Notes: a model not told the origin generated them from the letters alone. A stretch of 37,526 nucleotides of DNA from Minisyncoccia bacterium (GCA_965656375.1 CBFHKH010000001.1:475319-512844), one strand, 5' to 3'. Counted from the stretch's first letter, positions 9,507 through 31,417 are shown. Program-made: numbers and translations.

Positions 9507-9579
9507 TGATCTTTAATTTTAAGACATTCCATGTGGAGATTATATCACAGTTCGAATCTCAAACTCTGAATTTTAAAGA

Positions 9580-14367: not shown

Positions 14368-14465
14368 AAGGATCTTTTCCGGATTGAAATACTGCTGCTA
14401 CAGTATATCAATATCTGTATAAATTTGCATTAGTATACCGTGAATTTGACACGACATATATGGGA

Positions 14466-15204
14466 GATAATGGGGTCAGGTACCATTTCTTGGCCTTCCA
14501 CGATTCCTCGTTGTTGCAATAAGATTATGCCTTTGTATAGCATGATTTGACCAGGTATTAGAACCATATGGCTTCCCTTTCTGAATAGAGAGACGTAATG
14601 CTTCTTGTTCGTGCTTATAAATTGGCATATTTACAAAAGACAGATAATCCTGGGGTTCTTCAATTGGCCATCTATCTAAAAAATTATTTCGATTTGATAA
14701 CCGTTTTGAAAGACTAGAATAATTCCAATCTTCAGCTCTTTGTACAAGATCTGCACGTAAAGGATTTCGCTCTATATAACGGATTGCCGTTAAAAGATGT
14801 TTATCTTTTTCGATAAGAAAAGATTTGTATCTTCCTTGGTATAAATGACCAGATCCTATTGTTTTATTCTTGATGTGCCATCGCTGAGTATGAGTAAGAG
14901 TTACCCACTGCATAAATTTTCCGAGATCACCTTCTTTTTTCGGATAAAGAACGAGATGAAAATGATTTGGCATTAAGCAATACGCTATAATTCTCATGCC
15001 ATATTTTTCTTTTCCATCTTGCAATATATTTTCAAAAAGCTTGTAATCATTTTCGTCAAAAAATATCGGCAATCTTGCATTTGCTCTGTTTAAAATATGA
15101 TAAACTTCATCACCTACATCAACTCGTACACTTCGTGCCATAATTAAACAATAGCAAGAAGTAAATAAAAGAATTCTAAATTAATGGTACCTGACCCCAT
15201 TATC
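14466..15204. mobile_element. RAYT (REP-associated tyrosine transposase) module with 22-bp perfect inverted repeats
   Basis: GATAATGGGGTCAGGTACCATT (14466-14487) and its exact reverse complement (15183-15204) flank the HUH transposase; the left copy contains the stop codon. Confidence 0.85.
14476..15141 (-). CDS. REP-associated tyrosine transposase (Y1_Tnp, IS200/IS605 superfamily)
   Basis: YHILNR, HUH motif MPNHFHLV, GHLYQGRYKS, catalytic YIERNP, W..SS, C-terminal RGRP. Confidence 0.92.
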   Translation of the reverse strand: MARSVRVDVGDEVYHILNRANARLPIFFDENDYKLFENILQDGKEKYGMRIIAYCLMPNHFHLVLYPKKEGDLGKFMQWVTLTHTQRWHIKNKTIGSGHLYQGRYKSFLIEKDKHLLTAIRYIERNPLRADLVQRAEDWNYSSLSKRLSNRNNFLDRWPIEEPQDYLSFVNMPIYKHEQEALRLSIQKGKPYGSNTWSNHAIQRHNLIATTRNRGRPRNGT

Positions 15205-15376
15205 CTAACGGAGAGGAAATAATTCTATCAATAAGTATTCCTTTGTTTTTGATATTTTGAGCGGTAACTCTTGCTTGTTGTTTACCTTTTTCAGTTAGAA
15301 GTGAGTTATCACGTTGCCCAGCAAATACACCCTTAAGGTTCGCTTCACTTTCACCATGTCGGACAAAATAAATCAT
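15200..15376 (-). pseudogene. Truncated histidine phosphatase (phosphoglycerate mutase family)
   Basis: MIYFVRHGESEANLKGVFAGQRDNSLLTEKGKQQARVTAQNIKNKGILIDRIISSPLG* (58 aa); the stop codon lies inside the RAYT inverted repeat. Confidence 0.85.
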
Positions 15377-15382
15377 AAAAAA

Positions 15383-15721
15383 TTAACTCAACTTATTTCC
15401 AATATCCACTGAATCAGTTTTAGGTTCAATTAGAACCCATCCATCACCAGCATTATTTTTAAATCCGAGTGTTAGTACTTCTGAAAAGAATGTACCAATT
15501 TGCTTTGGAGGAAAGTTCACAACACAGCATACAAATGAATTAAGTAGATCCTCTTTTTTATGAGCACCAACAGCCTGAACACTCGATTGTTTTATTCCTA
15601 TGTCCTGACCAAAATCAATCTTTAATTTATAAGCAGGTTTTCGAGCTTCTGGGAAATCAGAAATTTCTATAATTTTTCCAACTCGTATATCTACTTTTTC
15701 AAAATCTTCATATGTGATCAT
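15383..15721 (-). CDS. csaA: tRNA-binding protein / secretion chaperone CsaA
   Basis: ITYEDFEKVDIRVG...FPEARKPAYKL.IDFG..IG.K.SS, VVNFPPKQI..F.SEVLTLG; start at ATG 15721. Confidence 0.9.
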   Translation of the reverse strand: MITYEDFEKVDIRVGKIIEISDFPEARKPAYKLKIDFGQDIGIKQSSVQAVGAHKKEDLLNSFVCCVVNFPPKQIGTFFSEVLTLGFKNNAGDGWVLIEPKTDSVDIGNKLS

Positions 15722-15761
15722 AAATATTTTATTTAAAAACTTTATAGAGCTCAATACCTAA

Positions 15762-16310
15762 TTACTTTAATTCATACTCCCAGCCTGGTTGCCAAGATCG
15801 TGTCTTGCGCCAATCCTCTGCGAGTGCTTGTTTCCACGTTTTGCCTTTAAGTAATACATCAAGAGAAAGTTGCGGAGCTTTATGACCTACGAGGGCAACA
15901 TGTTTACCATCATAATTCTTCTTGAGAAATTCAAGAAGGTCAGCAATTCTATTCTTAACATCTTCATAGCTTTCCCCTTCTGGGAATGGTTTGTAGATAC
16001 ACTCATCTTCTTGCATTGGTTCGACGATTGCTGATGATGCAGCGTTTAGTTTTCCATAGTTACATTCTCGGAGCCGTGTATCAGGAATGATTTCATATAA
16101 TCCTTCCCATGCTAATTTTGCGGATTTATGAGCACGTTGTAGATCAGAACAAAAGACTACATCAAATTTCATATCTTTTGTTTCATCTTTCAATTCTATA
16201 GACTGTTTTACTCCTAAATCCGAAAGAGCTACATCAGACCAGCCTGATGAGATTTCTTTTTCGTTATCTGTTGTCGTACCGTGTACGAAGTATGTTATTT
16301 TGATAGACAT
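15762..16310 (-). CDS. Histidine phosphatase family protein (VHG variant of the RHG motif)
   Basis: YFVHG, D..LS..G..Q, SDLQRA, LRECNYG, FP.GES, LVGH. Confidence 0.88.
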   Translation of the reverse strand: MSIKITYFVHGTTTDNEKEISSGWSDVALSDLGVKQSIELKDETKDMKFDVVFCSDLQRAHKSAKLAWEGLYEIIPDTRLRECNYGKLNAASSAIVEPMQEDECIYKPFPEGESYEDVKNRIADLLEFLKKNYDGKHVALVGHKAPQLSLDVLLKGKTWKQALAEDWRKTRSWQPGWEYELK

Positions 16311-16564
16311 ATATTTTTAAAAGAGTATCTAGGACTCGAACTGAGAATTCATTGATAAATATAGATATTTTAATTTTAGCATTTTGACCCGTCTAGGTCA
16401 CTTTTTGTGATTTTCAAAATGAGCATTGTCCTGTATGACGCGTCATGGTCGCAAGGTACCAAAAACTAGACTGCTGGCGTCTTTGAGCTGGAACGGTGGT
16501 CGGTCAAGCCCTGCAAGGACATTTTCAATACTTTTAGCTTAACATTTCGACGGTCCTTGAGCAC

Positions 16565-16735
16565 CTATAAAGTTACCTCTCTTCCATGTCCATCTAACAC
16601 CACTCCTTTTGGAAGCTTATACAGATCAGGGTTCTGTTCCTTATCCATTTTTATCAGTAGATCAAATAGACCAACGACTCTATCTCGTTCTTCCTGTGTC
16701 CAATTCTTAGGATTTTTCTTATCTTCTTGATTCAT
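16565..16735 (-). CDS. Small hypothetical protein (56 aa)
   Basis: MNQEDKKNPKNWTQEERDRVVGLFDLLIKMDK...; amphipathic helix; ATG at 16735 preferred over the upstream GTG. Confidence 0.6.
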   Translation of the reverse strand: MNQEDKKNPKNWTQEERDRVVGLFDLLIKMDKEQNPDLYKLPKGVVLDGHGREVTL

Positions 16736-16799
16736 AAAAAGTGACAAAAGTGACACGTATTAGGCTTATAAAATTACAGTTGCGTGTCACCTTAAATTG

Positions 16800-17711
16800 T
16801 TACTCAAAACCAACACTCGGATCTTTGATTAGTTTAATCATTTCCAATCTTTCTTTTTGATCTTTTGAGTCTGCTTGAGCATCTTCGACCATACCAATAA
16901 TCGAAGACATATGCCCGGTTCTCTTTCTCATTAGGAAATGCAAATATTCATTATCTTCCGCTGGATCAAGAGGTAATGGCTCCAATTCTTTCAGTAGATT
17001 GATCCGATCCAGACCGTCCGTTTTTAATAGAAATAGAAGAACTTCCATCATTGCAATCTCGTCGCTTTCAAAATTTATTTCTTCATCACCCCAGACAACC
17101 TTTGCCGCCTTAGACCAACTTCCTGAAATTTCGTATGTGTATAAATTCTTTGTTGTTGCGGCTTTATCAGTAATTTTATATAGATCCTTTGCTATTTTTT
17201 TCACTGTCTTTCCCATGAATTTTTTGATCTGCAAAGAATTCTCGGCACCGATAATATCGTCTTCGACCCTTATGCCGAGGTGTTTATGTAGAAATGTAAG
17301 AAACAGCTTTTTGTCCTTAGATAGATTATCAATTTGAGGAAGATTGAAACGACCATAGCGATGGTCTTCGTAAAACACAGAGAGAAGCGTAAGCAACCCT
17401 GTATGGACAGGACCCAGATCTAAATCAACGCTTTTCTTAAGTCTGTTATAGAGAGTAATGTGGTCGTGAGTAATTAGAGTTTTCTCGAATTCGTCTATAT
17501 TGGTATCGTCATTAACCTCTACTAGGACAATAGCGACCTTGAACATCCTCTCCAGTCCAATGGAGAGATTATAGAGAACTGGAAATATCTCAATTTCCAA
17601 ATTCAAGGTTTCCATTTCATGGAGATTTCTCAATCCATCATAGATAAAGTTACAAGCAATTTCTTGCTCTTCTCCCATTTTAAAGTTTTGCCAAAATTCT
17701 GAAGGATTCAT
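16800..17711 (-). CDS. Hypothetical protein with a HEPN-like N-terminal domain
   Basis: GLERMFKVAI ... THDHITL ... YEDHRY follows the E..LK / H.L..L / RY pattern of HEPN domains; last gene of the defence operon. Confidence 0.55.
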   Translation of the reverse strand: MNPSEFWQNFKMGEEQEIACNFIYDGLRNLHEMETLNLEIEIFPVLYNLSIGLERMFKVAIVLVEVNDDTNIDEFEKTLITHDHITLYNRLKKSVDLDLGPVHTGLLTLLSVFYEDHRYGRFNLPQIDNLSKDKKLFLTFLHKHLGIRVEDDIIGAENSLQIKKFMGKTVKKIAKDLYKITDKAATTKNLYTYEISGSWSKAAKVVWGDEEINFESDEIAMMEVLLFLLKTDGLDRINLLKELEPLPLDPAEDNEYLHFLMRKRTGHMSSIIGMVEDAQADSKDQKERLEMIKLIKDPSVGFE

Positions 17712-17714
17712 AAG

Positions 17715-18143
17715 TTAAAGAGGTAATACTTCTATAAGATTATGTTCATCTCGTCCAAGTTCAATACGATATAGGAATTCGTACCCATGTTTGAGATGAA
17801 TAGCCCTGAGCTTATTCTCATCATTGTCTCTTGGTTCGTCGTTCCAATACCCCTTAACTTCTATAGCTATCAAATTGCGTCCCGTAGGACCAAATTCGTG
17901 AACAATAATATCAGGAACGATCAGATTTCCATCGAGATCCTTTTTTGGCTTTCTGTTACCAATCTCTCCCTCTCGATTGTATTCAGACCAAACTTCATAA
18001 TTTGGAAAATGCTCACGTAGGTACGGCAATATTTCAGGAACAATAGTCCTCTCATGAGCCTTTTCGTCGATCAAATTTTTATTATCTCGATAAATGATTC
18101 TGCAGGCTTCATTGATTATCTTTTCAATAGTTTCTTTATTCAT
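17715..18143 (-). CDS. PD-(D/E)xK nuclease-fold protein (142 aa)
   Basis: HE...EYNR...PDIIVH...IAIEVK; the ATG at 18143 overlaps the helicase stop. Confidence 0.7.
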   Translation of the reverse strand: MNKETIEKIINEACRIIYRDNKNLIDEKAHERTIVPEILPYLREHFPNYEVWSEYNREGEIGNRKPKKDLDGNLIVPDIIVHEFGPTGRNLIAIEVKGYWNDEPRDNDENKLRAIHLKHGYEFLYRIELGRDEHNLIEVLPL

Positions 18144-20745
18144 GTTTTTTAGGTAGTCTAAAAATCTCTGCGACTTCTTCGTAATGTTCGTTTTTCTTAT
18201 CAAAAGCATTTAATAACTCAATTTCGCTCACATCAAGCAGTTCTCCAATGTCGCTGAATGAAAGAAAGTTTCCATGCTCGCTGATAATATATCTCGAAGC
18301 TCCACGAGAAAATCCCAGATTTTGCATCTCTATAACTCGCTTGTCTGTAGTACCGTATTCGATAAATTCAGACCAATCTTGCCCGGCATTTTCTTCACCG
18401 AGTACATATTTAGAAATTAAGTAGTAGTTCAAGAAGTACTTTTCAATCTTAAATCGCAAGCCATTTTCAATATCACTCATTATCTGCTCAATGATGATAT
18501 TGATTTGTTTTTGATCACCAGTAAAACGCTCGTTCTTTGGTCTGCCATCTTCATAGAACCAAATGTCACCCTTATCTTGATGATAGTTAATAGAGAAAGT
18601 AATCAATCGACTCAAAGGCTCTGCCTTTGTCCAGTTTTTCATTAGCATAGCCCAGTATCTAAGACGGCTTTTACCATATCCCGCATCTACAAGCCCTTTC
18701 GGTATTAATGGGTCTCTTCCTCCTGATTCCTCGATGTCCCAGCCATACATCGTGTATAGGGTTTCTAGAGCATGAACAATAATCTCGATATTATCGTTAC
18801 TTATATTTAAAACAGCCTCCTGTTTCTTTGCTTGAATGTGAGCAAGAACTTTGTTTTGGTATATCGGCTTGATTGTCGAAGATGATCTAAGAATATCGCT
18901 AGGAACCTTGTTGGTATTTTTTGTCTTTTCCAAAAGCTCCAAAGCCTTGGGGTTCTTCTCAAAAAATCCTGACTTAAGCACAGAGGCTTCATTCTCTATG
19001 TGATGCAAAAGCATTATGGTCGAATAGTGGGTTAGGTTTTCTTTCTCACCCACACGAAGACTTTTTGCCATGTCTCCATTCACAAGAGCTTTTCCAATAT
19101 TTGTAAATTCTTTAGTCTTCCGTTTCTCTTTATTCACCAAGAAACTATCGACCTTGCCAAGACTCGTTTTCTTTAACAGCTCTGCGCCATCTTGCCAACG
19201 CCTATCTTCGTCTCGGACACATATTACGTTACCTGAGATTTCTTTTGTTAGTCTTCCTGCTCGACCAATTAGATTTTCAAAATCAATTTTTTCAAATGTA
19301 TGAGAACCGTGACCGTCATTAAAAACAAAGATGTTCTTTGCTGGAAGATTTATACCCTCAAGTAAAGTTGAGGTGCAAAATACATACCTGAGTGATGAGT
19401 CTTTGTCGGCAAAAAAGTCTTCGATCTTACGTCGTACAGGCTGTGGCATTTTTCCGTGATGAAACGCAACCCCTTTTCTTAAGCATTCGATCAAGTAATA
19501 ATCCTTGTGAACATAGTCCGCTATATATACGAGCAAGTCTCGAAGCTCCTGGGTATCTGGAACCTTTGGTAAGGTTGATGCAAAATCCTTTGCTCTACGC
19601 ACAGTCTCGGAAATTCCATTACAGTAAATAATATTGTTTACGCCACTACCAAGATTTTCTATAAGCTTCTGAGAGTTTAGGTTAAAATCGAAATTTTCTA
19701 TCGTATGTTTGTCTCCAAGCTCGGAAAACAACACAGCTTCCTTATCTTTAAAATCAACAAAGTACCTATTCTGGGCAACTGTCTGTTCTGTAATAGGAAG
19801 CGAACCTCGATCGTCTTTTTCAAACAGTTTTAGGAAAATATCAGGGTTTGGAATATTTGGAGATGCAAAAACTAGTTTTGTAGCGAACCTGCGCGTTGTT
19901 TCGTATATTGCATGATAATAAAGCGAACTCCGAGAATCATTTTCGGCAATAACTTTCTGTGCTTCATCAACAAAGAGGTATTTAATACCGAGGGCGTTAG
20001 AACTTACGTAACTGAGCAATCGTTCTGGTGTAAAGACGAAGATATGGTATTTATATTTCTTTTGAGCATATGATGATAGAACGGGATGTGAAGCTATATT
20101 CACATTACTATCGTCAATTTCATCTCTTAGTTCTGCAACAACCTGACTGATTAATGCCCTTGTTGGTACAAGGATTACAACCGCGCCATCAATCACCTGA
20201 TTCTGCTGTAGCAGGTGACGGATGTAGTCTTTCATTATGAAAGATTTACCAATCGATGTTGGTCCAGAAAAACTAAAGTAGTCAAAGGATTCCAGTTCCT
20301 TTCTTACTTTATGCTGAGCATCGGTAAAAATGTACTTTCCATTCGATATTTTTTGATTTTCCGACTTTACCTTTCTTTCGATGTTTCTTTCTAAAGGAAG
20401 AGCATCGACATATTCCTCATTATCACGAAGAAATTTCAACGCAGGAAAATTCCCCAATTTTGCCAAGATCGCACTCGCAAATAATTGAAAACTCTTAGAT
20501 TTGCCAAAGGCTTTCACTAAAAGAGCAATGATCTTGTACGCTTTATTTCTTGCATCCGCGTCTTTTGAATGAGAGAGCAGATCAGCAAATCTCATCAGGT
20601 CATTAAATTCCTTTTCAGATATTGATTCGTTTGTTCCAATACTAAAACAATCATGTGCTGAGATGATTTCTGCCTTACTGAAGAGACTCAAAAAATAATC
20701 GTCTTTCAGTATGTCTTCTTTGAGTCTTTCAGCAATAGTCGTCAT
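18136..20745 (-). CDS. hamB: Ski2-like SF2 helicase, Hachiman HamB-like
   Basis: GPTSIGKS, LVPTRAL, TPER, FVDEAQK, GVAFHHG, TSTLLEGINLP, NLIGRAGR; coupled to the DUF1837-like gene by an ATGA overlap. Confidence 0.82.
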   Translation of the reverse strand: MTTIAERLKEDILKDDYFLSLFSKAEIISAHDCFSIGTNESISEKEFNDLMRFADLLSHSKDADARNKAYKIIALLVKAFGKSKSFQLFASAILAKLGNFPALKFLRDNEEYVDALPLERNIERKVKSENQKISNGKYIFTDAQHKVRKELESFDYFSFSGPTSIGKSFIMKDYIRHLLQQNQVIDGAVVILVPTRALISQVVAELRDEIDDSNVNIASHPVLSSYAQKKYKYHIFVFTPERLLSYVSSNALGIKYLFVDEAQKVIAENDSRSSLYYHAIYETTRRFATKLVFASPNIPNPDIFLKLFEKDDRGSLPITEQTVAQNRYFVDFKDKEAVLFSELGDKHTIENFDFNLNSQKLIENLGSGVNNIIYCNGISETVRRAKDFASTLPKVPDTQELRDLLVYIADYVHKDYYLIECLRKGVAFHHGKMPQPVRRKIEDFFADKDSSLRYVFCTSTLLEGINLPAKNIFVFNDGHGSHTFEKIDFENLIGRAGRLTKEISGNVICVRDEDRRWQDGAELLKKTSLGKVDSFLVNKEKRKTKEFTNIGKALVNGDMAKSLRVGEKENLTHYSTIMLLHHIENEASVLKSGFFEKNPKALELLEKTKNTNKVPSDILRSSSTIKPIYQNKVLAHIQAKKQEAVLNISNDNIEIIVHALETLYTMYGWDIEESGGRDPLIPKGLVDAGYGKSRLRYWAMLMKNWTKAEPLSRLITFSINYHQDKGDIWFYEDGRPKNERFTGDQKQINIIIEQIMSDIENGLRFKIEKYFLNYYLISKYVLGEENAGQDWSEFIEYGTTDKRVIEMQNLGFSRGASRYIISEHGNFLSFSDIGELLDVSEIELLNAFDKKNEHYEEVAEIFRLPKKHE

Positions 20746-21671
20746 TGGATATGTTCGATTATCTTTTTTCTGGTCGAATCCAGACTTATGTCACCCTTTT
20801 TAATAAAAGGGACAGCGTATATATAAAAATGATACCCATCAAGGTTATGGGTTGTGATTTGCTCTTGGATATAGTCGTATCTATCCTCTACAGACTTTTT
20901 AACTTCTTCTTTGATCTTCTTTTCAAAATCCTGATCTGTCATCTGTTGGAGATCCCAGTCATTTATATCAATTTCAAAACCAACAAAAATACCAAAACAA
21001 TTTGCTTTCGTAACAGAGGTGTCACGCGCCGATGGTTTAATGATGTTCTTGAGGTATTCCACTGCATCTTCAGCAAAAGATTCTTTCATCAGATTAGAAT
21101 CCACCAAATTTATTTCTCCACCAATTCCTTCCGTTTCGACTTTTTTAATGGACTTAAAAGCATCCGCTATTGCCTTGCGGAAGCTTGAACCTTTTTCGGT
21201 TGAATCACTGATCATCTTTGATTCTCCGAAAATGAGATGAAAATTTCCGTTACCAAGATCAAGAAGATGAATACCATCAGCGCCCTTTATGTAGTCATTC
21301 CCAGAAGTCTTGAGTTCCATTTTTGATAGAATCTTCGGAGCATTCAAATGAGTTTCAAGGAAGCAGTACAAAAACAGTTCACCACCCTCGCCATCATTAA
21401 CTTCAAAATCTCTGAACGACTGTTGTACTTGTTTGATGTGCTCGTGTAATTTACCTTCCTCAATACCTTCAAATTTGGTTCGAGAAAAGACATATGTAAT
21501 GGCGGCGTTACCCAACTCGCGATTCATGCTCTCATAGTCAAAACGCCCACCGTCTATTCGGAGGACATACAGACTTAGTTTGGTCTTTACCGTTAGATTA
21601 TGGGCATCTATCTCTGGCTCATAAAATAAATCTAAGAATTTCTTACCATTTTTAATACTTTTCTCTATCAT
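20742..21671 (-). CDS. hamA: DUF1837 / HamA-like PD-(D/E)xK nuclease
   Basis: GELFLYCFLE, KMELKT, GADGIH, FGESK and terminal Y.VPF motifs. Start set at ATG 21671; the ORF track extends to 21770. Confidence 0.82.
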   Translation of the reverse strand: MIEKSIKNGKKFLDLFYEPEIDAHNLTVKTKLSLYVLRIDGGRFDYESMNRELGNAAITYVFSRTKFEGIEEGKLHEHIKQVQQSFRDFEVNDGEGGELFLYCFLETHLNAPKILSKMELKTSGNDYIKGADGIHLLDLGNGNFHLIFGESKMISDSTEKGSSFRKAIADAFKSIKKVETEGIGGEINLVDSNLMKESFAEDAVEYLKNIIKPSARDTSVTKANCFGIFVGFEIDINDWDLQQMTDQDFEKKIKEEVKKSVEDRYDYIQEQITTHNLDGYHFYIYAVPFIKKGDISLDSTRKKIIEHIQ

Positions 21672-22051
21672 AAAATCTCTTGGATATAAGTGTATCCTAC
21701 TTGCAGATTCTAGCATTTTCCTCTTGATTTTTCCAGTTTTTATTGTATGGCTTTTAACTGTTTCCACCACTCTGTGCCGGAGAAGACTGTCAAGGATTCT
21801 TTTGCATCATCAACACCAAAAGTATCGTCGCATTTCAGTCAACAAATAATTTAAACGCCATTTATATCCCTTATTACAAGGGTATTTTTATGTCTGCATA
21901 CCAAACACCGTATACACAAATTGATACGCCCCTTGCACATTCCAAAACCCCACATTCACTTTTTTAGTATCGTGACTATGTAACACAGAGCTGTCATTTT
22001 CGGAGAAATGTACGCCACTGATTACTTTATTAGCACTAATTCATACACATT

Positions 22052-23332
22052 ATGAAAAAAGAAAAACTTGAATGGAGTTCGGGGGTTCGTGAGGTTACGA
22101 AGCTAAAGCCTTGGAAAGATAATCCGAGGTCGATAACAGCATCGGCGTTTGAAAAGTTAAAAGACAGAATCAGGGAACGTGGCTTTCACAGCACGATTGT
22201 CATTGATACGGACAATACTATCCTCTCAGGAAACATGCGAAGAGAGGCACTCATTGCACTTGGCATAAAGGAGGTAAATATTCTTGTTCCGAATCGAAAA
22301 CTGACAAGCGAAGAAAGAAAACGGATCGCACTCGAAAGTAACTTGAACGATGGAGAGTGGAACATGGAGGCTTTGAAGTCATTTAATTTGGAACTACTCA
22401 CCGATGTTGGATTCGATCAGATGAAATTGGTGGAGTTCTGGGACAAGGATGCGGAAGTTGCAAAGGATTCGTTTGATCTGAAGAAAGAAATCAAGATTGC
22501 TGAAAAGACGAAGATAAAACGTGGCGATATGTATCAGCTCGGTTGTCACAAATTAATCTGTGCCGATGCGACAGATCCGAATACTGTCATCAAATTGATG
22601 GATGGTGTAAAGGTAGATCTCGTCAATCAGGATCCCCCCTACAATATCGGGCTGTCATATGACAAAGGGGTGGGTGGAAAAAAGAGCAGTAAAAAGTATG
22701 GTGGTCAAACCGATGACAACCTGAGCGACGAGGGCTACAAGGATTTCATCAGGAAGATGATGAAGAATGCGTTGTCCGTCAGCAAGAAAGATTGCCATTT
22801 TGCCTACTGGGGAGATGAACGCTTTGTCTGGGTTTTTCAGACTCTCTACAAAGAACTAGGTATCGCTTCCAAGAGACTCCTCATATGGGTAAAAAACAAT
22901 GCATCGCCCACGCCTCAGACCGCATTCAACAAAGCAACGGAATACATCATTTATGGTACGACTGGATCGCCGTACCTCTCTCCCAATGTTCACAATGCCA
23001 ATGAAGTAATAAACTTCGACACCACAACAGGAAATGATTTGCTTGATGAAGTGAGCAATATCATTCTTCAGAAAAGACTTCCCAGCAACCAATATCATCA
23101 CCCCACCCAAAAAGATCCTCAGGTACACTCGAAGATTCTCAAGCGTTGCACCAAGATTGGCGATGCGGTGCTTGATCTGACCGCTGGCTCTGGAAGCATC
23201 ATGTCTGCGTGCGAACAGCTCGGCAGAGTTGCCTATATGTCTGACTACGAGCCTGTGTTCTGTCAGGTGATCTTGAACAGGTACAAGAAGATGACAGGAC
23301 TTAATCCAGTAAAGATATATGAAGAAAAATAA
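22052..23332 (+). CDS. ParB-like N-terminal domain fused to an N6/N4 DNA methyltransferase (phage-type)
   Basis: NPR...IVID...ILSGNMR (ParB); G.HKLICADA, DPPYN, HPTQK, VLDLTAGSGS (beta-class motif order). Confidence 0.9.
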   Translation: MKKEKLEWSSGVREVTKLKPWKDNPRSITASAFEKLKDRIRERGFHSTIVIDTDNTILSGNMRREALIALGIKEVNILVPNRKLTSEERKRIALESNLNDGEWNMEALKSFNLELLTDVGFDQMKLVEFWDKDAEVAKDSFDLKKEIKIAEKTKIKRGDMYQLGCHKLICADATDPNTVIKLMDGVKVDLVNQDPPYNIGLSYDKGVGGKKSSKKYGGQTDDNLSDEGYKDFIRKMMKNALSVSKKDCHFAYWGDERFVWVFQTLYKELGIASKRLLIWVKNNASPTPQTAFNKATEYIIYGTTGSPYLSPNVHNANEVINFDTTTGNDLLDEVSNIILQKRLPSNQYHHPTQKDPQVHSKILKRCTKIGDAVLDLTAGSGSIMSACEQLGRVAYMSDYEPVFCQVILNRYKKMTGLNPVKIYEEK

Positions 23333-23714
23333 GATCCAGGATAAGTTCCTGGAAGAATTGAGGACTATTCCCATAGTGCAGGTCGGTTGCGAGAAATCAG
23401 GGATTTCCAGAAACAGCGTGTATCGATGGAAAAAGGAAGACAAGACTTTTTCCAATAAGATGGATCAAGCACTCGCTGACGGCGTGGCTTTTGTAAGTGA
23501 CATGAGTGAGAGTCAACTGCTTACGCTCATCAAGGAGAAGAATTTTCCTGCTCTGAGCTTTTGGCTACGGCACAGGAATGATAACTACAAAAGCAAAGTC
23601 GAAGTGTCTGGCACTATCTCTACCAAAGATGAACCTCTAACCAAAGAGCAGAAGAAGCTCGTACGACAGGCATTGAAATTGTCCTCCCTAAAGCATTATG
23701 AAAAAGAAAAGTGA
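23319..23714 (+). CDS. HTH protein, putative terminase small subunit
   Basis: CEKSGISRNSVYRWKKED HTH and A..FWL motif; overlaps both neighbours and directly precedes TerL. Confidence 0.72.
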   Translation: MKKNKIQDKFLEELRTIPIVQVGCEKSGISRNSVYRWKKEDKTFSNKMDQALADGVAFVSDMSESQLLTLIKEKNFPALSFWLRHRNDNYKSKVEVSGTISTKDEPLTKEQKKLVRQALKLSSLKHYEKEK

Positions 23715-25146
23715 AAGCGATGAAATCTTCGAGCGTGTCCTGAAAGATCAGCGTTTTCGGCAAGAAGTTGTCAGGAAGAGTCTTGAGTTTTTCTTCCCGA
23801 TATATCTGCACGAATACATCAAGTACGAAACCGCACCGTTCCAAAGAGAGATATTTCGTATTCTTCAAAACGAGAAGAACAAGCTTGCCGTCATAACGGC
23901 GTTTCGAGGATCAGCCAAATCAACCATCATTACGACCGCATATGTCCTGTGGTCTATCTTGGGCGTGCAACAAAAGAAGTTCATTATGATCTGTTCGCAA
24001 ACTGAAACGAAAGCGAGACAGCATTTGAATAACATCAAGGATCAGCTTTTACATAACGAACTTTTGAAAAAAGACCTCGGACCATTCGAGGAAGAAAAGA
24101 ACAATCTTGGAAACGCCACAGCTCTCATCATCAAGCGAATGAATGTGAAGATCATGATCTGTTCTATCGAGCAGAGTATCCGTGGTATGCGTCACAACGA
24201 GCATCGTCCCGACCTTATTATTCTCGACGACATCGAAGATCTTAACTCAGTCAAAACAAAGGAGGGACGAAACAAAACTTTTGACTGGCTGACTGGTGAC
24301 ATCATTCCCGCAGGTACGAGGAAGACTCGGATTATCGCAATTGGTAACCTGCTCCACGAGGACTGCGTACTCAAACGATTGGAAAAGAAAATTGAAAACG
24401 GCGAGATGAAAATAATGAACGGCATCTATCGTGAGTATCCGATCATTGATGGCAAAGGCAATCCTTTGTGGGCTGGCAAATATCCTACACCCGAATCTAT
24501 TGAGGAAGAGCGAGAGAAAACCATGAACGATACCGCATGGCACAGAGAGTACTTACTTAAGATCATTTCAAGCGATGAACAGATCGTACACCCCGAATGG
24601 ATCAAACTCTATGACAAGATTCCTCCCGACGGTTTTAGAGGTATTTATATCGGCGTTGACCTAGCTATCGGAGAGAAAGAAACGAATGACTGCACATCCA
24701 TGGTTATTGGGTACGTTTTTGGTATTGGAAAGAAAATGCATATATACATTCGTCCTAAACCGTTCAATGCACGAGTTCCTTTCCCAGAACAAGCTGAATA
24801 TCTCGCAGGTCTTATCGCACGAGAAAAGATCATGCACCGCAGAGTCAAAGTATATGTTGAAGATGTGGGCTACCAACGAGCATTGGTTCAATATTTTGAT
24901 AGCAATAAATACGATATCGAGGCTGTGCCAGTCGGCAGAATGAGCAAGTCATTGCGACTGCAATTGACCACACCACTCATTAAAGAAGGCAGAGTTCTTT
25001 TTCCAGAGGAAGGATGTGAGGAACTGCTTGATCAGATCCTAGGATTTGGAAAAGAAAAACATGACGATCTTGTCGATGCTTTTTCCTTATTGGTTATGAA
25101 AGTGATTGATAACAATCCGAACAATGCAGGAATACTGTTTGGTTAA
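23698..25146 (+). CDS. terL: Phage terminase large subunit
   Basis: Walker A FRGSAKST, Walker B LIILDDIE, RNase H-like IGVDLA, D.TS, YVED and HDDLVDA. Confidence 0.9.
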   Translation: MKKKSESDEIFERVLKDQRFRQEVVRKSLEFFFPIYLHEYIKYETAPFQREIFRILQNEKNKLAVITAFRGSAKSTIITTAYVLWSILGVQQKKFIMICSQTETKARQHLNNIKDQLLHNELLKKDLGPFEEEKNNLGNATALIIKRMNVKIMICSIEQSIRGMRHNEHRPDLIILDDIEDLNSVKTKEGRNKTFDWLTGDIIPAGTRKTRIIAIGNLLHEDCVLKRLEKKIENGEMKIMNGIYREYPIIDGKGNPLWAGKYPTPESIEEEREKTMNDTAWHREYLLKIISSDEQIVHPEWIKLYDKIPPDGFRGIYIGVDLAIGEKETNDCTSMVIGYVFGIGKKMHIYIRPKPFNARVPFPEQAEYLAGLIAREKIMHRRVKVYVEDVGYQRALVQYFDSNKYDIEAVPVGRMSKSLRLQLTTPLIKEGRVLFPEEGCEELLDQILGFGKEKHDDLVDAFSLLVMKVIDNNPNNAGILFG

Positions 25147-25148
25147 CT

Positions 25149-25574
25149 TTACTTGATCTTTTCTCCGTCGAAAATGAACTCTACAACTTTCCAGTTCGCA
25201 TCTGTCTCGACTGACTCCTGAGTATCTTGCCCGCCGATATATTCGAGCTTCATAGACCAGTAGGTACGGATCATCGCCCCGAACCCATTTTGACTGTCGA
25301 TATACGACGATACTTCAAACAGGTTCGGATTTGTCGGATCGACTTTTGTTGTTGGCGGATTATATTTCGCTGTTGATGGCGACTTCAGTGGAACTTTATC
25401 AATGTACGACTTTGCAAGAATTCGTGCGCTCTGATATTTCACTTCGCTGATCTGCTGAGCAGGTGTAGGAGCAGGGCTACTATTTATATCTGCGACCATT
25501 CCGACAACAAACAGAACACCTAAAATAAGAACAAGCTTCTTACCTGTAGACCAGGTAGATATTTTTAAATTCAT
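25149..25574 (-). CDS. Membrane-anchored hypothetical protein
   Basis: N-terminal TM helix, Pro-rich linker, LKSPSTAK and IDSQNGFGAMIR motifs. Confidence 0.75.
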   Translation of the reverse strand: MNLKISTWSTGKKLVLILGVLFVVGMVADINSSPAPTPAQQISEVKYQSARILAKSYIDKVPLKSPSTAKYNPPTTKVDPTNPNLFEVSSYIDSQNGFGAMIRTYWSMKLEYIGGQDTQESVETDANWKVVEFIFDGEKIK

Positions 25575-25616
25575 AAAACTTTAGCGGTTTTTTATGACTA
25601 ATAATGTTTGAGGAGA

Positions 25617-25718
25617 TGCAAAAATCTCCCCGCCAGTTGCGATCCGATCTTTCGACCGAACCCATACCCGTTTCCAGATATGACCGCTAAAGTGACTCCT
25701 GACGAGGAGGTTTTTACA
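25617..25718 (-). ncRNA. Structured ncRNA resembling c4/CI antisense RNAs
   Basis: A 20-bp closing stem (one mismatch, three G-U) encloses two GAAA-capped hairpins and an unpaired segment complementary to sites upstream and downstream. Confidence 0.65.
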
Positions 25719-25934
25719 CTTTAGCGGGTTTTGCGCCATACCTTTGGAACAAGTTCTAAAGGGTTAGGCGACTATATTCAACTGTAAATGAATAATAACA
25801 TTTTCGACCTTATTATTCTAGATTGATTCTATCGCTGATACATGGTTTTGCTAAGACTTAGGTCGCGAGTATGCGACGTATTTCTAGTTCTGCATAGTCT
25901 ATGCACCATCCACCAGTCTGTCATCAATATAGAT

Positions 25935-27254
25935 ATGGAAACCCAGTACATAAGTAACCTTGGTGTTAAAACGGAGATAGTTCAAGCAAAAGTTCGCTAT
26001 GTTCTATACGCCAGAAAATCGACTGAATCAGACGAGAAGCAAGCTTTGTCTATTGAGTCGCAAGTAAAGGAAATGTTAACTATCGCAGATCGTGATGGAC
26101 TCACTGTGGTAGATATCAGGCGAGAATCACATAGCGCTAAAGAATCAGGACAGCGACCTGTATTTAAAGAATTGCTTGAAGATGTTCGTAGAGGCAGATA
26201 TACGGGAATATTAACATGGGCACCTGATCGTCTTTCTCGAAACGCAGGAGATCTTGGGTCTGTGGTTGATCTCATGGACGAGAATAAATTGATAGAGATT
26301 AGAACATACGGACAACATTTCAAGAACTCACCAAATGAAAAGTTTCTCTTAATGATCTTGTGTTCTCAAGCAAAGCTAGAAAACGACAACAAGAGCATTA
26401 ATGTAAAACGAGGATTAAGAACGAGATGCGAAATGGGGCTACGACCAGGACCTGCGGTTGTCGGATATCTCAACGAAAAGCGAATGGATAAAAAGTGTGA
26501 AGTGATTATAGATCCTGAACGAGCACCGATAGTAAAACAGATTTTTGAAAAGGTAGCGTATGAGCAATGGTCAGGCAGAAAGATTTTTCATTGGCTGAAG
26601 TTTGATCTGAACTTCAAGACCAGAAGTGGCAACAAAGGACTCACTCTCAGCAATATCTACCTCATACTGCAAAACCCCATCTACTATGGGGTTTTTGAAT
26701 ACCCAAAGAAAAGCGGAAATTTCTATACAGGAAAGCATGAGCCAATAATTTCTAAGGAACTCTTTGATCAAGTCCAAGGACAGATAAAAAGTCAGGTACT
26801 ACGAGTACAGGAACCAAAAGAATTTGCGTTCACCAAGATGATGACCTGTGGTCTATGCGATTCTGGTATCTGTGCAGATGAGAAGTTTAAGAAACTCAAA
26901 GACGGATCAGTGAACAGGCATGTTTACTATAGCTGTACCAAATCAAAGGATAAGTATTGCAAATGCGGATATATAAACGAAACCGAGTTGATAGAACAGT
27001 TCGAGAAACTTCTTGAATCAATCAATATCAGCGAGATCGGAATGAAAGAAAAGATCAAATATGAGGTTGAACGGATCAAGAAATTCAATCAGTCTGTTTT
27101 GAATATAAAACAGCAGATACAGATCAAGGATGTAGACATTAGAGACTACGCCAAATTTATCTTGAAAGACGGTTCGATTGAGGAGAAGCGAGAATTACTT
27201 ACTTGTTTTAAAAGCAAGATTATACTAAAAGATAAAATTATTTCACTAGATTAG
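25935..27254 (+). CDS. Large serine recombinase (resolvase, recombinase and zinc-ribbon domains)
   Basis: YARKSTE, S.ESQ, RP.F..L, DRLSRN, L.NP.Y.G, GKHEPIISKELF, CGLC...YYSC...C; start at ATG 25935. Confidence 0.93.
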   Translation: METQYISNLGVKTEIVQAKVRYVLYARKSTESDEKQALSIESQVKEMLTIADRDGLTVVDIRRESHSAKESGQRPVFKELLEDVRRGRYTGILTWAPDRLSRNAGDLGSVVDLMDENKLIEIRTYGQHFKNSPNEKFLLMILCSQAKLENDNKSINVKRGLRTRCEMGLRPGPAVVGYLNEKRMDKKCEVIIDPERAPIVKQIFEKVAYEQWSGRKIFHWLKFDLNFKTRSGNKGLTLSNIYLILQNPIYYGVFEYPKKSGNFYTGKHEPIISKELFDQVQGQIKSQVLRVQEPKEFAFTKMMTCGLCDSGICADEKFKKLKDGSVNRHVYYSCTKSKDKYCKCGYINETELIEQFEKLLESINISEIGMKEKIKYEVERIKKFNQSVLNIKQQIQIKDVDIRDYAKFILKDGSIEEKRELLTCFKSKIILKDKIISLD

Positions 27255-27258
27255 GAAA

Positions 27259-27657
27259 CTAACTAAAATTAACCACAAAATTATACATACCCATACTGCA
27301 TGTTCCCTGAAGAGGAGTGCCTGCCTCTGGTGTACCTACATCAACAACCTCTTCTCCTGTCTGAGGTAATACTTTTTGAAAACCAATTGATCGAATCACC
27401 AATGATGATGAACAATCGTATGTACCGTCAGTTTTAATAATTAATTTTGTAGGGATACCAGCCTTTGCTGTAGAAACTTTTGGAGAATAACCACCCTTAG
27501 CTTCAATCGTCACGTATTGAATACCATCTCTTACCTCCACATTTTGTAATGCCTGATTCGACACGGAACCTGTATCACTTTTTGTACCACCAACAAAGAT
27601 AATACCAATACCGACAACAAGAGCTATAGTGATGATGATTGAGGCTGTTTTGTTCAT
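27259..27657 (-). CDS. Cupredoxin-domain protein
   Basis: N-terminal TM, GYSP..., GTCSMGMY copper ligands. Confidence 0.82.
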   Translation of the reverse strand: MNKTASIIITIALVVGIGIIFVGGTKSDTGSVSNQALQNVEVRDGIQYVTIEAKGGYSPKVSTAKAGIPTKLIIKTDGTYDCSSSLVIRSIGFQKVLPQTGEEVVDVGTPEAGTPLQGTCSMGMYNFVVNFS

Positions 27658-27676
27658 ATGATTATTATACTTAAAA

Positions 27677-28684
27677 TTAAATGTTGAATAAAGGATTAAT
27701 AATTCCGAGTCCTGCTAGTCCCGCAAGAAGCGCAAATAAACCAAGTCCAATCACCACGACACCAGCAGACTTGAAGAACAATGGCGCGTGCTTCCCATGT
27801 GCGAACGAGGCAGAACCAAATGAAAGAAGCAGGAGCATTGGAAGTGTTCCGAGAGCGAATGCAAGCATGATAAATAGTCCCGAGGTGAAGGAACCACTTC
27901 CCAACGCAGAAACTTGCATAGACTGTGTAAAACCACACGGTAAAAAGAAAGTGGCAAAACCGAGAATGAGTGGCGTAAACGTCTTATGTTCAATTCTTCT
28001 GAAGAAATTGAACAATCCTGACGGTAATGCGATCCTATTCTTGGCAAAAACACCCACAAGATTAAGACCAAGCAGTAGCATCACCAAAGATGCCAGTATG
28101 CCTAATATTGAAGTAAGGGTAAAATTAATTCCAATTACACTACCTACAGCCCCGAGAACACCTCCTAACACAGCAAAACTTACCAGTCTCCCTGCGTGAA
28201 AAAGTAAGAATGTTTTCGTGTCACTCACATTATCCTGTGATATTTTTGCAGAGAGCGACAGAACGAGACCTCCGACAATAGCGAGACAACTTGATACTGA
28301 AGCAATGAGTCCAATAACAAAGCTTGTTACAGGTGTTATTTGACCTCCAATGCCGAGATTTAAGATTCCTGACTTTTGCAAAAGAAAGAACAGAATGAGG
28401 AATATAAGCCCAATCGGCAGAGCTTTCCAAATAACTCCATCAGATTTATTTTCTTTTATTGGTTTTTCAAGCGACAACTTATATCCATTTACTTTAATTT
28501 TTTCTGTTAGGATTTGAACTAATGCCTCAGGATCGTGACCACTGTCGGTCTCAATTTCAACAGTCTCTTGCTTTAGGTTAACTCGAGTATTTTTGATGAA
28601 GTCCTGTTCATTCAAGACATCTTCAATGAAGATTTTACATGACGGACAATGAGTACCTGAAACGTGAAAAGTGTATTTATTCAT
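27677..28684 (-). CDS. HMA domain fused to a DsbD_2 / sulfite exporter TauE-like membrane domain
   Basis: GTHCPSC, SSCLAIVGG, FH.GR..S, LPCGFTQ, FALGTLP. Confidence 0.85.
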   Translation of the reverse strand: MNKYTFHVSGTHCPSCKIFIEDVLNEQDFIKNTRVNLKQETVEIETDSGHDPEALVQILTEKIKVNGYKLSLEKPIKENKSDGVIWKALPIGLIFLILFFLLQKSGILNLGIGGQITPVTSFVIGLIASVSSCLAIVGGLVLSLSAKISQDNVSDTKTFLLFHAGRLVSFAVLGGVLGAVGSVIGINFTLTSILGILASLVMLLLGLNLVGVFAKNRIALPSGLFNFFRRIEHKTFTPLILGFATFFLPCGFTQSMQVSALGSGSFTSGLFIMLAFALGTLPMLLLLSFGSASFAHGKHAPLFFKSAGVVVIGLGLFALLAGLAGLGIINPLFNI

Positions 28685-28686
28685 AA

Positions 28687-30981: not shown

Positions 30982-30984
30982 AAA

Positions 30985-31260
30985 TTATTTTCTCTTTAGC
31001 TTATAAACTTTCAAAATTTCTTGCTTGGCTTTCTCAGTCTGCCCAGCCTTAACTTGGTTCAAAATACATCCGCCTAGATGATTTTCGAGTAACAAGTCTT
31101 CGACATTCGAAAGACCTTGTTTTACTGCTGATGTTTGAGTGATCACGTCTATGCAGTACGTGTCATTTTCAATCATTTTCTGCAAACCTCGAACCTGACC
31201 TTCTAGAAGCTTGAGCCTGCGAATGATTTTGCTTTTATTTTTATCTTCCATATATTTCAT
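30985..31260 (-). CDS. csoR: CsoR-family metal-sensing repressor
   Basis: RL..LEGQVRGL.KMI....YC.D...Q, H...C ligands. Confidence 0.92.
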   Translation of the reverse strand: MKYMEDKNKSKIIRRLKLLEGQVRGLQKMIENDTYCIDVITQTSAVKQGLSNVEDLLLENHLGGCILNQVKAGQTEKAKQEILKVYKLKRK

Positions 31261-31337: not shown

Positions 31338-31417
31338 TCTGGATACTGCTCTCAGCAGGTATGCAATTTACAGTATGGTTGTCTTTTACTAGCTATCTTT
31401 GAGCTAGCTCAAGTTTG

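Follow-up and report, generated by a model that had tools for sequence, protein, structure and literature searches.

The stretch of DNA analysed here (37,526 nucleotides, hereafter the window) contains a mobile island of ~11-15 kb in an ultra-small CPR/Patescibacteria host, and this island is an intact member of a wider family. The element spans 16473 to ~27257, perhaps extending to a tRNA-Gln gene at 31417. The core of the family consists of a ParB-methyltransferase, TerS, TerL and a large serine recombinase, with exchangeable cargo held in slots between or beside the core genes and, in many members, a second methylase following the ParB-methyltransferase. The features are as follows.

16473-16570, no strand assigned: left-end conserved block, opening with a short hairpin-forming stretch
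16565-16756, minus strand: orf63, a small protein without assigned function that accompanies the left end and this recombinase type
16800-17711, minus strand: cargo slot 1, 303-aa protein without assigned function, its cluster present in 4 loci, adjoining the left end
17715-18209, minus strand: cargo slot 1, PD-Lambda-3_A-like candidate defence gene (PADLOC PDLC03986, 3.4e-13, profile positions 9-156 of 159)
18136-20745, minus strand: cargo slot 1, HamB, Hachiman helicase (PADLOC HamB 8.7e-275, full length; Pfam DEAD and Helicase_C)
20742-21770, minus strand: cargo slot 1, HamA, Hachiman DUF1837 effector (Pfam HamA 2.3e-52; PADLOC HamA 1.7e-93)
22052-23332, plus strand: core gene, N6/N4 DNA methyltransferase with a fused ParB-like domain
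23319-23714, plus strand: core gene, TerS, small terminase with an N-terminal helix-turn-helix
23698-25146, plus strand: core gene, TerL, large terminase with intact ATPase and nuclease motifs
25149-25574, minus strand: cargo slot 2, 141-aa protein with an N-terminal hydrophobic segment (phrog_13160, 3.7e-16, a family without assigned function)
25641-25770, minus strand: LOOT RNA (Rfam RF03000), heading cargo slot 2, which runs antisense
25842-27254, plus strand: core gene, large serine recombinase, presumably the integrase
27259-31260, minus strand: copper-resistance cluster of a cupredoxin, HMA-DsbD, CopA-type ATPase and CsoR (Pfam)
31417-31488, minus strand: tRNA-Gln(CTG), found by ARAGORN and the Rfam tRNA model, with its 3' end toward the recombinase

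The original prediction described overlapping, intact genes for the ParB-methyltransferase, TerS and TerL, the last ending 2 nt from a convergent gene, and the ORF coordinates and motifs agree. The methyltransferase and TerS overlap by 14 nt and TerS and TerL by 17 nt, and the stop codons of TerL and the convergent 141-aa ORF lie 2 nt apart. The rest of its gene list also stood, although the LOOT RNA and the association with a convergent tRNA-Gln had been missed. The methyltransferase matches Pfam N6_N4_Mtase (1.7e-22) and phrog_498 (8.5e-79), and its N-terminal part is ParB-like (phrog_620, 1.2e-18). TerS matches five PHROG small-terminase families (best 1.8e-8); its top-ranked fold matches are the small terminases of Sf6, NV1 and PaP3, none of them significant (best E 0.18, TM 0.35). 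TerL matches phrog_38 (4.4e-84), the NCBIfam T7-type large terminase (2.5e-19, below the family cut-off) and the sequence of the T7 gp19 structure (9.7e-5). Its ATPase motifs (Walker A-like G71/K74/S75; Walker B D172/D177/D178) and nuclease residues D321, E388, D456, D457 and D460 are invariant in 43 aligned relatives, and its C-terminal tail has the length and pattern seen in phage TerLs. A check for relaxed selection on TerL found strong purifying selection instead, with dN/dS of 0.033 and 0.040 for TerL, 0.017 for TerS and 0.05-0.06 for the methylase, values that come with saturated synonymous sites.

The recombinase has the Resolvase (1.2e-20), Recombinase (2e-17) and Zn ribbon (Zn_ribbon_recom, 6.6e-5) domains of Pfam and matches phrog_95 (2.1e-62). 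Its best NCBIfam matches are CcrB and XisF, and the CcrB-like match (3.4e-36) falls far below the cut-offs (125 vs 900 bits). This domain architecture is shared with CcrB/CcrC of SCCmec, with SPbeta-type prophages, which unlike the present element are full prophages, and with XisF of the fdxN element; SCC elements are not known to carry a terminase. In 60 of 75 loci a recombinase lies downstream of TerL on the same strand. Modules are shuffled between elements, as seen for locus L008, where TerL is 46% but the recombinase 87% identical to the window copy.

The left border lies at 16473. When the window is aligned by blastn with L008, L011, L022 and L013, every alignment starts at 16472/16473, and leftward of 16473 the flanks are dissimilar in all five loci (alignment A2). 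The border had been placed at 16397, which was 76 nt too far out. The left-end block is better conserved than the coding parts and was found with this recombinase type only, in just 5 of the loci compared; it is present as a single copy in the genome. The adjacent orf63 is 65-95% identical between the window and L008, L011 and L022 and matches no family of Pfam, PHROGs or NCBIfam; a directionality factor or regulator would be a guess. On the right, two borders come into question, the stop of the recombinase gene (~27257) and the tRNA-Gln at 31417. Homology among elements ends right at the recombinase stop codon, and the convergent tRNA-Gln follows 4.2 kb further on. Wherever a tRNA gene lies downstream of the recombinase it is convergent (18/18 loci), and the tRNA-Gln is possibly both the insertion-site tRNA and the outer right border. 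The whole element sits inside a variable region of ~49 kb, which measures ~3-8 kb in two genomes of the same genus. In one genome of this genus, G025, the same tRNA-Gln site holds a similar recombinase and a type I restriction-modification (R-M) system without TerL.

The cargo upstream of methylase-TerS-TerL is a Hachiman system, with HamA (DUF1837) and HamB (helicase) adjacent and overlapping by 4 nt. The 303-aa protein of this slot matched nothing in Pfam, PHROGs, PADLOC or NCBIfam, and the protein atlas gave clusters of hypothetical proteins only. The content of cargo slot 2, here a small membrane protein, differs between otherwise alike elements, with other genes in L011, L022, L013 and L012. 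At its head, the LOOT RNA scores 85.2 bits over model positions 1-121, above the gathering score of 46.4. It is the sole copy in the genome and occupies the equivalent position in L010, L011, L012 and L022; the conserved block that runs on into the recombinase begins within it, at 25660. The copper-resistance cluster is possibly a third cargo slot between recombinase and tRNA, its membership being uncertain. Downstream of the recombinase, five loci (TerL identity 43-89%) have a CopA-type gene, and L008 and L022 have other genes there despite sharing the recombinase type. In related loci the variable flanks hold mainly restriction-modification and other defence genes, the commonest cargo clusters being type I R-M, an Eco57I-type methylase with a PLD-SNF2 helicase, reverse transcriptase and OLD nuclease. 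A LexA-like S24 repressor is divergent from the operon in 10 loci and an HTH_3 protein is present in 10 related loci; no regulator, the PICI types being AlpA, MerR and Stl, was recognised in the window copy.

A family of capsid-less integrative elements, under purifying selection, exists in the Patescibacteria (CPR). We clustered the genes of 125 loci, comprising the window, 3 loci from the same genus, 42 from genome contigs and 79 from IMG/VR; some of these share one contig or come from near-identical contigs and so are not fully independent, and presence in IMG/VR does not equate to encapsidation, as a terminase gene alone can get a contig flagged as viral. Only four genes recur, TerL (123 loci), the methylase (97), TerS (83) and the recombinase (69), with the next largest cluster at 14. 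Their order, methylase-TerS-TerL-[0-5 genes]-recombinase, is constant across many CPR lineages, and in the element clade the methylase is upstream of TerS/TerL in all 72 loci with at least 2.2 kb of upstream sequence. Among the phylum genomes sampled, the TerL family was found in 48 of 401, representing 44 of 320 sampled genera. The phrog_2662-type portal family was found in 11 of the 401, and only one genome contains both.

The suggestion that the window contains no portal, capsid, tail, primase or relaxase gene held up in Pfam scans of 35 ORFs spanning its whole length. Extending the virion search to the host genome (0.87 Mb, 97.9% complete) with six portal/capsid families, phrog_2662, phrog_12, phrog_10, PF05065, PF04860 and PF05133, gave no match, and no member of a portal or major-capsid cluster occurs in any of 97 element-clade loci. 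All 99 element-type TerL entries group in a single clade (SH-aLRT 99) that includes no portal-bearing locus, and the portal-bearing phage TerLs form grades below. By this sequence phylogeny the element TerLs arose once, from a lineage of phage terminases. In the portal-bearing relatives the portal is fused to MuF (phrog_2662, 1e-107 to 1e-120) and accompanied by a protease and a capsid of HK97 type. Among these relatives are the CPR siphophages of IMG/VR (L109, L097/L098, L117 and L119), which share the TerL family at 33-42% identity but differ from the element in having portal, protease, capsid and tail genes and no serine recombinase adjoining TerL in the sequenced stretch examined. In L109 the methylase, TerS and TerL clusters of the element are followed by portal and capsid genes, and its structural proteins are 34-50% identical to those of a prophage in a CPR genome. 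Siphophages with this methylase-TerS-TerL-portal(MuF)-capsid order are the likely ancestors of the element and candidate helpers.

A possible decaying prophage, having kept its packaging genes by chance, is contradicted by these data. In its favour, the module is clearly phage-derived, and G025 has a similar recombinase and type I R-M at the same tRNA-Gln without TerL. We nevertheless consider this explanation very improbable, given a single clade of 99 TerLs with a virion gene in no locus, dN/dS of 0.03-0.06 (synonymous sites saturated) with invariant catalytic residues, and an identical layout over many CPR lineages. The block recurs without portal or capsid and with variable cargo, as had been predicted. 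As the closest TerL homologues are not in complete prophages and the genes are under purifying selection, the proposal of an intact, recurrent, capsid-less element with defence cargo is supported; its further part, the hijacking of helper capsids, is something we infer.

The element is not a complete tailed prophage, as only 2 nt separate TerL from a convergent cargo gene and the genome has no virion family match, nor a gene transfer agent, the six portal/capsid families being without match in the genome. PICIs and SaPIs are likewise small integrative islands with an integrase, accessory and defence cargo and their own TerS to redirect packaging, a function predicted also for the TerS at 23319-23714. 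Judged against the PICI core genes as listed in the account of PMC10085698, the element has an integrase at one end (the serine recombinase at 25842-27254; tyrosine and serine integrases are treated as interchangeable by SatelliteFinder in the same account) and a small terminase. A primase-replicase was not recognised by Pfam, PHROGs or NCBIfam in the ORFs of 16473-27257 or in the recurrent clusters of the 125 loci, the 303-aa protein being a conceivable exception. The LexA-like S24 repressor beside the packaging operon in 10 loci is a further likeness in those members. Unlike PICIs, the element has TerL besides TerS, a large serine recombinase, a ParB-methyltransferase and CPR hosts, and its core lacks primase-replicase and capsid-morphogenesis genes. 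The cf-PICIs, in the account of PMC10085698 the only described satellite family encoding terL, share this gene with the element but add genes for the capsid, head-tail adaptor and connector, none of which is present in the window, the genome or 97 related loci. P4-like satellites are recognised by an alpha primase-helicase and Sid/Psu/Delta; no primase was found in the element with general Pfam and PHROGs profiles and we do not assign it to them. The PLEs of Vibrio cholerae and the marine VEIMEs are satellites with a large serine recombinase, as here, though from hosts of other phyla, and PLEs carry their own replication initiator. Certain VEIMEs have terS besides R-M and Abi-like genes, and, as far as the account in PMC9618062 extends, no large terminase is reported for either, the helper TerL presumably complementing. 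Our literature search found no description of a family of capsid-less terminase elements.

We propose, with moderate confidence, that the element is a phage satellite which depends on a helper but supplies the full terminase itself, the most likely carrier being the capsids of another phage. Infection by a CPR siphophage, or the SOS response in members with the LexA-like repressor, would switch on the methylase-TerS-TerL operon. TerS would recognise a packaging site on the element itself, and TerL, docked on the helper's portal, would load the element DNA into helper procapsids. Prior methylation by the element's methylase may guard this DNA against restriction in the next cell, where the serine recombinase would integrate it near a tRNA gene. 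Capsid diversion, together with the cargo, would also shield the host population. Against a satellite we count the lack of a replication or primase gene in the conserved core and in the window copy, as packaging needs concatemers. No conserved right-end site or reconstructable attB was found in the compared loci, and no free circular or concatemeric form was seen, terminal repeats being absent from 51 of 51 whole-contig loci; both observations likewise count against it. So does the TerL of the two portal-MuF-type CPR prophages examined (G420 and G253), which belongs to a different family, so that the pairing of TerL and portal is only putative. The assembled contigs of the probable source sample showed no helper phage for this genome, excision product or packaged form.

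The same observations can be read in other ways. The terminase could be a decoy within a defence-only island, mis-packaging or cutting DNA while procapsids are built and so aborting the phage, with the island spreading through transformation and recombination and not in capsids. Defence systems do dominate the cargo, there is no replication module, no circular form was seen, and an orphan methylase could mark self DNA. We think this unlikely, as co-transcription of the methylase with the terminase, together with the integrase and end block, would fit DNA that exits and re-integrates, and as module shuffling between lineages and spread over 44 of 320 genera argue for efficient horizontal movement. 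Interference with the phage and a satellite lifestyle are not exclusive, because satellites interfere with their helpers too. It is also conceivable, if improbable, that the integrated element is a packaging platform resembling lateral transduction or gene transfer agents, from which the terminase starts in situ and packs adjacent chromosome into helper capsids. The neighbouring variable region, as opposed to a discrete excised element, would then be mobilised, in keeping with the missing replication gene, a right end without a defined site, variable cargo running past the recombinase up to the tRNA, and the ~49 kb of hypervariable sequence around the element. The dedicated recombinase and an end block tied to recombinase type instead suggest a discrete excisable unit, and a genome without its own capsid genes is not a self-sufficient gene transfer agent. 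Re-use of the terminase independently of capsids, for instance to process or resolve DNA of the element or to export DNA by another route, appears quite improbable, and we know of no precedent. The related portal type is absent in 47 of 48 genomes with the TerL family and no helper phage is known, as such a role would allow, but TerL retains its translocating ATPase and nuclease motifs and a phage-like C-terminal tail, and TerS is retained beside it.

Phages and gene exchange in Patescibacteria are scarcely known. Here a TerL family in 48 of 401 genomes keeps a selected, complete packaging enzyme without a virion gene, alongside cargo that includes R-M, Hachiman, reverse-transcriptase and OLD-nuclease systems. 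More tentatively, these elements may be the first CPR phage satellites and the first satellite type with a complete terminase (TerS and TerL) and no capsid gene, needing only the empty procapsids and tails of the helper. Occurring in roughly one in eight of the Patescibacteria species sampled, they might be a main vehicle for the exchange of defence and metal-resistance genes in these tiny-genome bacteria, with the LOOT RNA as a control element of the cargo slot. If the element is a satellite, the range of satellite strategies would widen to an owner of the motor and not only of the TerS specificity factor, with dependence on the helper through the portal alone. This phylum, with genomes of 0.5-1.5 Mb, would gain a concrete route of horizontal transfer. 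Experimental handles would follow in a compact packaging module, a serine integrase whose end block is defined and the orphan LOOT RNA, which could be given a function. Otherwise, a strongly selected terminase in a capsid-free cell would be a function still to be explained.

The element under study lies in a genome of 0.87 Mb (7 contigs, completeness 97.9%), and it combines an operon of packaging genes with a large serine recombinase and genes on the opposite strand.

Features of the element (window positions, strand, description)
16565-16756, minus strand: orf63, an open reading frame
16800-17711, minus strand: open reading frame for a 303-aa protein without a family
17715-18209, minus strand: PD-Lambda-3_A-like protein (match at 3.4e-13)
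18136-20745, minus strand: HamB, a Hachiman defence gene (match at 8.7e-275)
20742-21770, minus strand: HamA, a Hachiman defence gene (match at 1.7e-93)
22052-23332, plus strand: ParB-N6/N4 methyltransferase (profile match)
23319-23714, plus strand: TerS (profile match)
23698-25146, plus strand: TerL (phrog_38, 4.4e-84)
25149-25574, minus strand: open reading frame of 141 aa, convergent to TerL
25641-25770, minus strand: LOOT RNA (85.2 bits)
25842-27254, plus strand: large serine recombinase (profile match)

The original prediction described three overlapping and intact packaging genes, a gap of 2 nt behind TerL and the lack of any virion, primase or relaxase gene. This observation was correct, since neighbouring genes of the operon overlap by 14 nt (methyltransferase and TerS) and 17 nt (TerS and TerL), the stops of TerL and the convergent 141-aa gene are 2 nt apart, and Pfam scans of 35 ORFs spanning the window returned no portal, capsid, tail, primase or relaxase. 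In a fold search with TerS small terminases were top-ranked, yet none reached E 0.001, and the ranking weakly suggests that the protein may be a small terminase. The 303-aa protein matched no family in Pfam, PHROGs, PADLOC or NCBIfam and fell only into unnamed clusters of a protein atlas. Neither promoter-like sites (28 found, 37.8 expected) nor terminator-like sites (14 found, 10.8 expected) gave a signal between 16300 and 31600.

TerL relatives were found in the same genus (four strong matches and one weak among 36 genomes) and in none of 24 genomes from other families of the order. Across the phylum sample 48 of 401 genomes, from 44 of 320 genera, matched TerL at E <= 1e-20, some with two copies. 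We took 42 TerL loci from one-genome-per-species contigs and used the best 79 loci of 203 TerL relatives in IMG/VR. The 42 genome-contig loci carry the labels of CPR lineages (28, with Saccharibacteria and Paceibacteria among the carriers), unclassified bacteria (5) or other phyla (9); five of these last nine carriers were inspected, and four have genomes of 0.8-1.3 Mb and one of 5.2 Mb. Two family members were also seen in single genomes (G080, G091, G139, G245, G292 and G306) and on the single IMG/VR contigs behind L054/L081, L072/L087 and L090/L091.

Clustering of 2,074 ORFs from 125 loci was dominated by four recurrent clusters, TerL (in 123 loci), methylase (97), TerS (83) and recombinase (69), the next largest occurring in 14 loci. 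The order is constant, running from methylase to TerS to TerL, then zero to five variable genes and a recombinase on the same strand, and a second methylase of ~252 aa often follows the first. The proposal that this block recurs with variable genes was thus borne out. Presence was counted over the 99 loci outside the phage grades, 97 of them with a called TerL ORF; the loci are partly non-independent, as several pairs share one contig or near-identical contigs. With at least 2.2 kb of upstream sequence, 72 of 72 element loci have the methylase and 56 of 72 a TerS-cluster ORF, at least some of the misses arising where the ORF caller took an antisense ORF. A same-strand recombinase follows in 60 of 75, a proportion biased upward because the denominator admits any locus in which a recombinase was seen, besides those with 9.5 kb or more of downstream sequence. 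No member of a portal or capsid cluster occurs in any of the 97 element loci.

The modules have clearly been swapped within the family, and identities of TerL and recombinase are weakly correlated (Spearman 0.30, 1,492 pairs). Seven loci (L029, L058, L060-L063 and L106) carry two tandem, diverged TerL genes. In the TerL tree the first and the second copies mostly separate into different subclades; the exceptions are L106, both of whose copies group with the first ones, and L071, where a single copy is seen.

The TerL of the window is under strong purifying selection. The Walker A-like residues G71, K74 and S75, Walker B residues D172, D177 and D178, and nuclease residues D321, E388, D456, D457 and D460 are invariant in an alignment of 43 relatives, and the C-terminal tail of element TerLs resembles that of phage TerLs. 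Measured against the two nearest relatives, L022 and L011, dN/dS was 0.033 and 0.040 for TerL and 0.060 and 0.050 for the methylase, and 0.017 for TerS against L011, with dS above 1.4 and synonymous sites close to saturation; for other pairs dS was beyond estimation. Relaxed selection on TerL, which had been named as evidence against the element, is excluded by these ratios.

In ten loci TerL is followed by a gene of ~720 aa, a portal-MuF fusion (phrog_2662, 3e-107 and 1e-119), then a protease/scaffold gene and an HK97-type major head protein (phrog_10, down to 6e-90). In a maximum likelihood TerL tree (125 rows, quick LG+G4 search) the 99 element-type rows form a single clade with an SH-aLRT of 99 and no portal-bearing locus inside; of these rows, 72 come from loci with a recombinase, 24 from loci whose available stretch shows the methylase alone, and 3 were left unassigned. 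The portal-bearing phages form grades beneath this clade, and L100, a locus labelled by its methylase, places among them. In one phage, L109, portal, protease, capsid and tail genes come after a methylase, TerS and TerL of the element clusters. A prophage in the CPR genome G253 has structural proteins 34-50% identical to those of L109, and the capsids of L098 and of the prophage in G420 share 57% identity. The packaging module was thus acquired once, from a CPR siphophage lineage, and that lineage provides the natural candidate helpers. A caveat is that the G253 and G420 prophages have a TerL of another family; terminase modules are therefore swapped among CPR phages with a common structural module. 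Both prophages (L151 in G253, L150 in G420) are apparently complete, with portal-MuF, HK97-type capsid and ParB-methylase.

Searches of the window's own genome gave no match to phrog_2662, phrog_12, phrog_10, PF05065, PF04860 or PF05133. Among the 401 genomes the portal family occurs in 11 and the TerL family in 48, and both are found only in G080, on separate contigs. Since this genome combines family members with a portal-MuF contig, it is a possible candidate for a natural satellite-helper pair. In a reference phage collection the best TerL identity was 25%; all 238 matches were below 60%, which leaves this TerL without a close relative among cultured phages.

We located the ends of the element by comparison with four loci that have a similar recombinase (L008, L011, L022 and the truncated L013). 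In blastn all alignments with the window begin at 16472/16473, and a second conserved block runs from 25660, within LOOT, to the recombinase stop at 27242-27257. The homology-defined unit thus extends from 16473 to about 27257 (10.8 kb), near the 16397-27254 originally predicted. Sequence to the left of 16473 is dissimilar in all five loci, and the 98-nt block at the left end is confined to these five, with one copy in the genome. Because L008 shares the left end (87%) and the recombinase (87%) with the window and its TerL is only 46% identical, the end block tracks the recombinase type, like an attachment-site arm.

For the right border the sequence offers two candidates, the recombinase stop and a tRNA-Gln 4,163 nt further on, with a copper-resistance cluster in between. 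In the available sequence a tRNA lies beyond the recombinase in 18 of 60 loci, convergent with it in all 18 (Gln 8, Ser 8, Glu 2) and in some only 95-187 nt away. The genes past the recombinase differ, being an Eco57I-type methylase and PLD-SNF2 helicase in L008 and a C5 methylase in L022; CopA-type genes lie downstream of the recombinase in five loci, in one of which (L034) a tRNA-Ser stands between recombinase and CopA-type gene. The window borders yielded no reconstructable att core and no convincing direct or inverted repeats, and terminal repeats were absent from all 51 whole-contig loci. Two hairpins, one at the left end and one behind tRNA-Gln, were considered as attL and attR; their 10-nt match is lost in L008, L011 and L022, and they are not read as such because each is palindromic by itself. 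The hairpin behind tRNA-Gln(ctg) resembles the left end of the element and is of another kind than the AAACTGCTTT-loop hairpins seen downstream of at least five tRNAs on contig C1 of the same genome, namely tRNA-Ile(gat), tRNA-Leu(taa), tRNA-Gln(ttg), tRNA-Ser(tga) and tRNA-His. In assembled contigs of three sequencing runs from one study, one the probable source, we found two minor joints, 16511>16736 and 26394>31330 (the latter with sides of 21 and 33 letters); they lie in low-depth contigs and were rejected as excision products, most likely representing related strains.

The surroundings are hypervariable. Orthologues of genes at 443-458 kb of the window's genome lie 3-8 kb from LOG-pyrG in two same-genus genomes (G010 and G012) and 49 kb away here, the element sitting within this ~49 kb region (window 1-16472 and about 458-507 kb of contig C1). 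Next to LOG-pyrG the 11 same-genus genomes examined all differ, and no empty site could be defined for attB. Genes at 1111-4741 encode a C5 methylase, DUF6998 and Z1-domain proteins and are R-M-like (PADLOC Helicase_II, 1.5e-98); two NUDIX genes, a kinase, a dCTP-deaminase-like gene and an IS200-type transposase (14476-15141) are also present. Two surface-type giants on the minus strand, of 713 aa (7365-9506) and 1595 aa (9580-14367), each have a C-terminal peptidoglycan-binding domain together with lectin/LamG, F-box-associated, PKD and Ig-like domains, and may serve an epibiont in attachment. Genome G025, which has no TerL match, has at this tRNA-Gln/LOG/pyrG site a serine recombinase of 73% identity with type I R-M behind it (L137), either a terminase-less relative of the island or a derivative of it.

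For the 20 non-core clusters that recur most, representatives were run through Pfam; 5 of the 20 had no family. The cargo comprises type I R-M (HsdM, HsdR, HsdS) with a YgjP peptidase, an Eco57I-type methylase with a PLD-SNF2 helicase, a 745-aa N6_N4 methylase, a reverse transcriptase, an OLD-family nuclease, DUF2779 and two small secreted-type proteins (DUF4352 and tRNA_anti-like); a further non-core cluster is an HTH_3 protein. A LexA-like S24 repressor occurs in 10 loci and, where mapped, is divergent and directly upstream of the methylase operon. In SaPIs the packaging operon is under host LexA control. LOOT RNA belongs to an orphan Rfam family, RF03000. It leads the antisense cargo genes in 5 of 7 loci from genomes and in 3 of 20 short ones from IMG/VR (besides the window L010, L011, L012, L019, L022, L067, L076 and L085), is missing where the recombinase abuts TerL, and is present once in the window's genome. 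It was rejected as a family-exclusive marker: 30 of 151 phylum genomes have it, 23 of the 30 outside the TerL-matching genomes, although the 151 need not all lie within the 401-genome TerL sample. None of 14 control genomes has it, and LOOT has the appearance of a leader or sRNA that goes with variable genes throughout CPR.

PICIs carry an integrase, a regulator, a primase-replicase, terS and sometimes capsid-morphogenesis genes, and terL only in cf-PICIs, together with capsid and connector genes, according to the available text of PMC10085698. The element family shares integrase and terS with PICIs and terL with cf-PICIs; it lacks the replicase of the former and the capsid genes of the latter, and would thus be PICI-like in working yet, by that text, a member of neither. 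For marine VEIMEs serine recombinases and terS are mentioned and terL is not in the available text of PMC9618062. We found no description of a methylase-TerS-TerL-serine recombinase element in the literature text searched, although the supplementary gene tables of both papers (PMC10085698, PMC9618062) might list TerL-bearing ones. Nor did we find satellites described in CPR bacteria in that literature text.

The family is selected, monophyletic, capsid-less and integrase-bearing, with exchangeable cargo. We give about an even chance to life as a satellite: the whole terminase would come from the element, and procapsids, tails and lysis from a CPR siphophage. This reading is favoured by the retention of TerS beside a TerL with translocase, nuclease and phage-like C-terminal tail, by a methylase co-transcribed with the packaging genes, by an integrase with a matching end block and by the wide spread of the family over the phylum. 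Phages employ such methylases to shield their DNA on entering the next cell. Against it, we found no replication gene and no helper, saw no free form and recovered no att core.

Set against the same evidence, an interference device serving defence only seems unlikely, and a platform for packaging in situ, akin to lateral transduction, is equally improbable; a use of the terminase independent of any capsid is more doubtful again. That the element is a prophage remnant is scarcely credible. The suspicion that its nearest relatives sit in complete prophages and that the window holds a lone remnant is contradicted by the recurrence of the block and by the 97 element loci, all free of portal and capsid genes. 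We rate this family of CPR bacteria as belonging with phage satellites or integrative defence islands.
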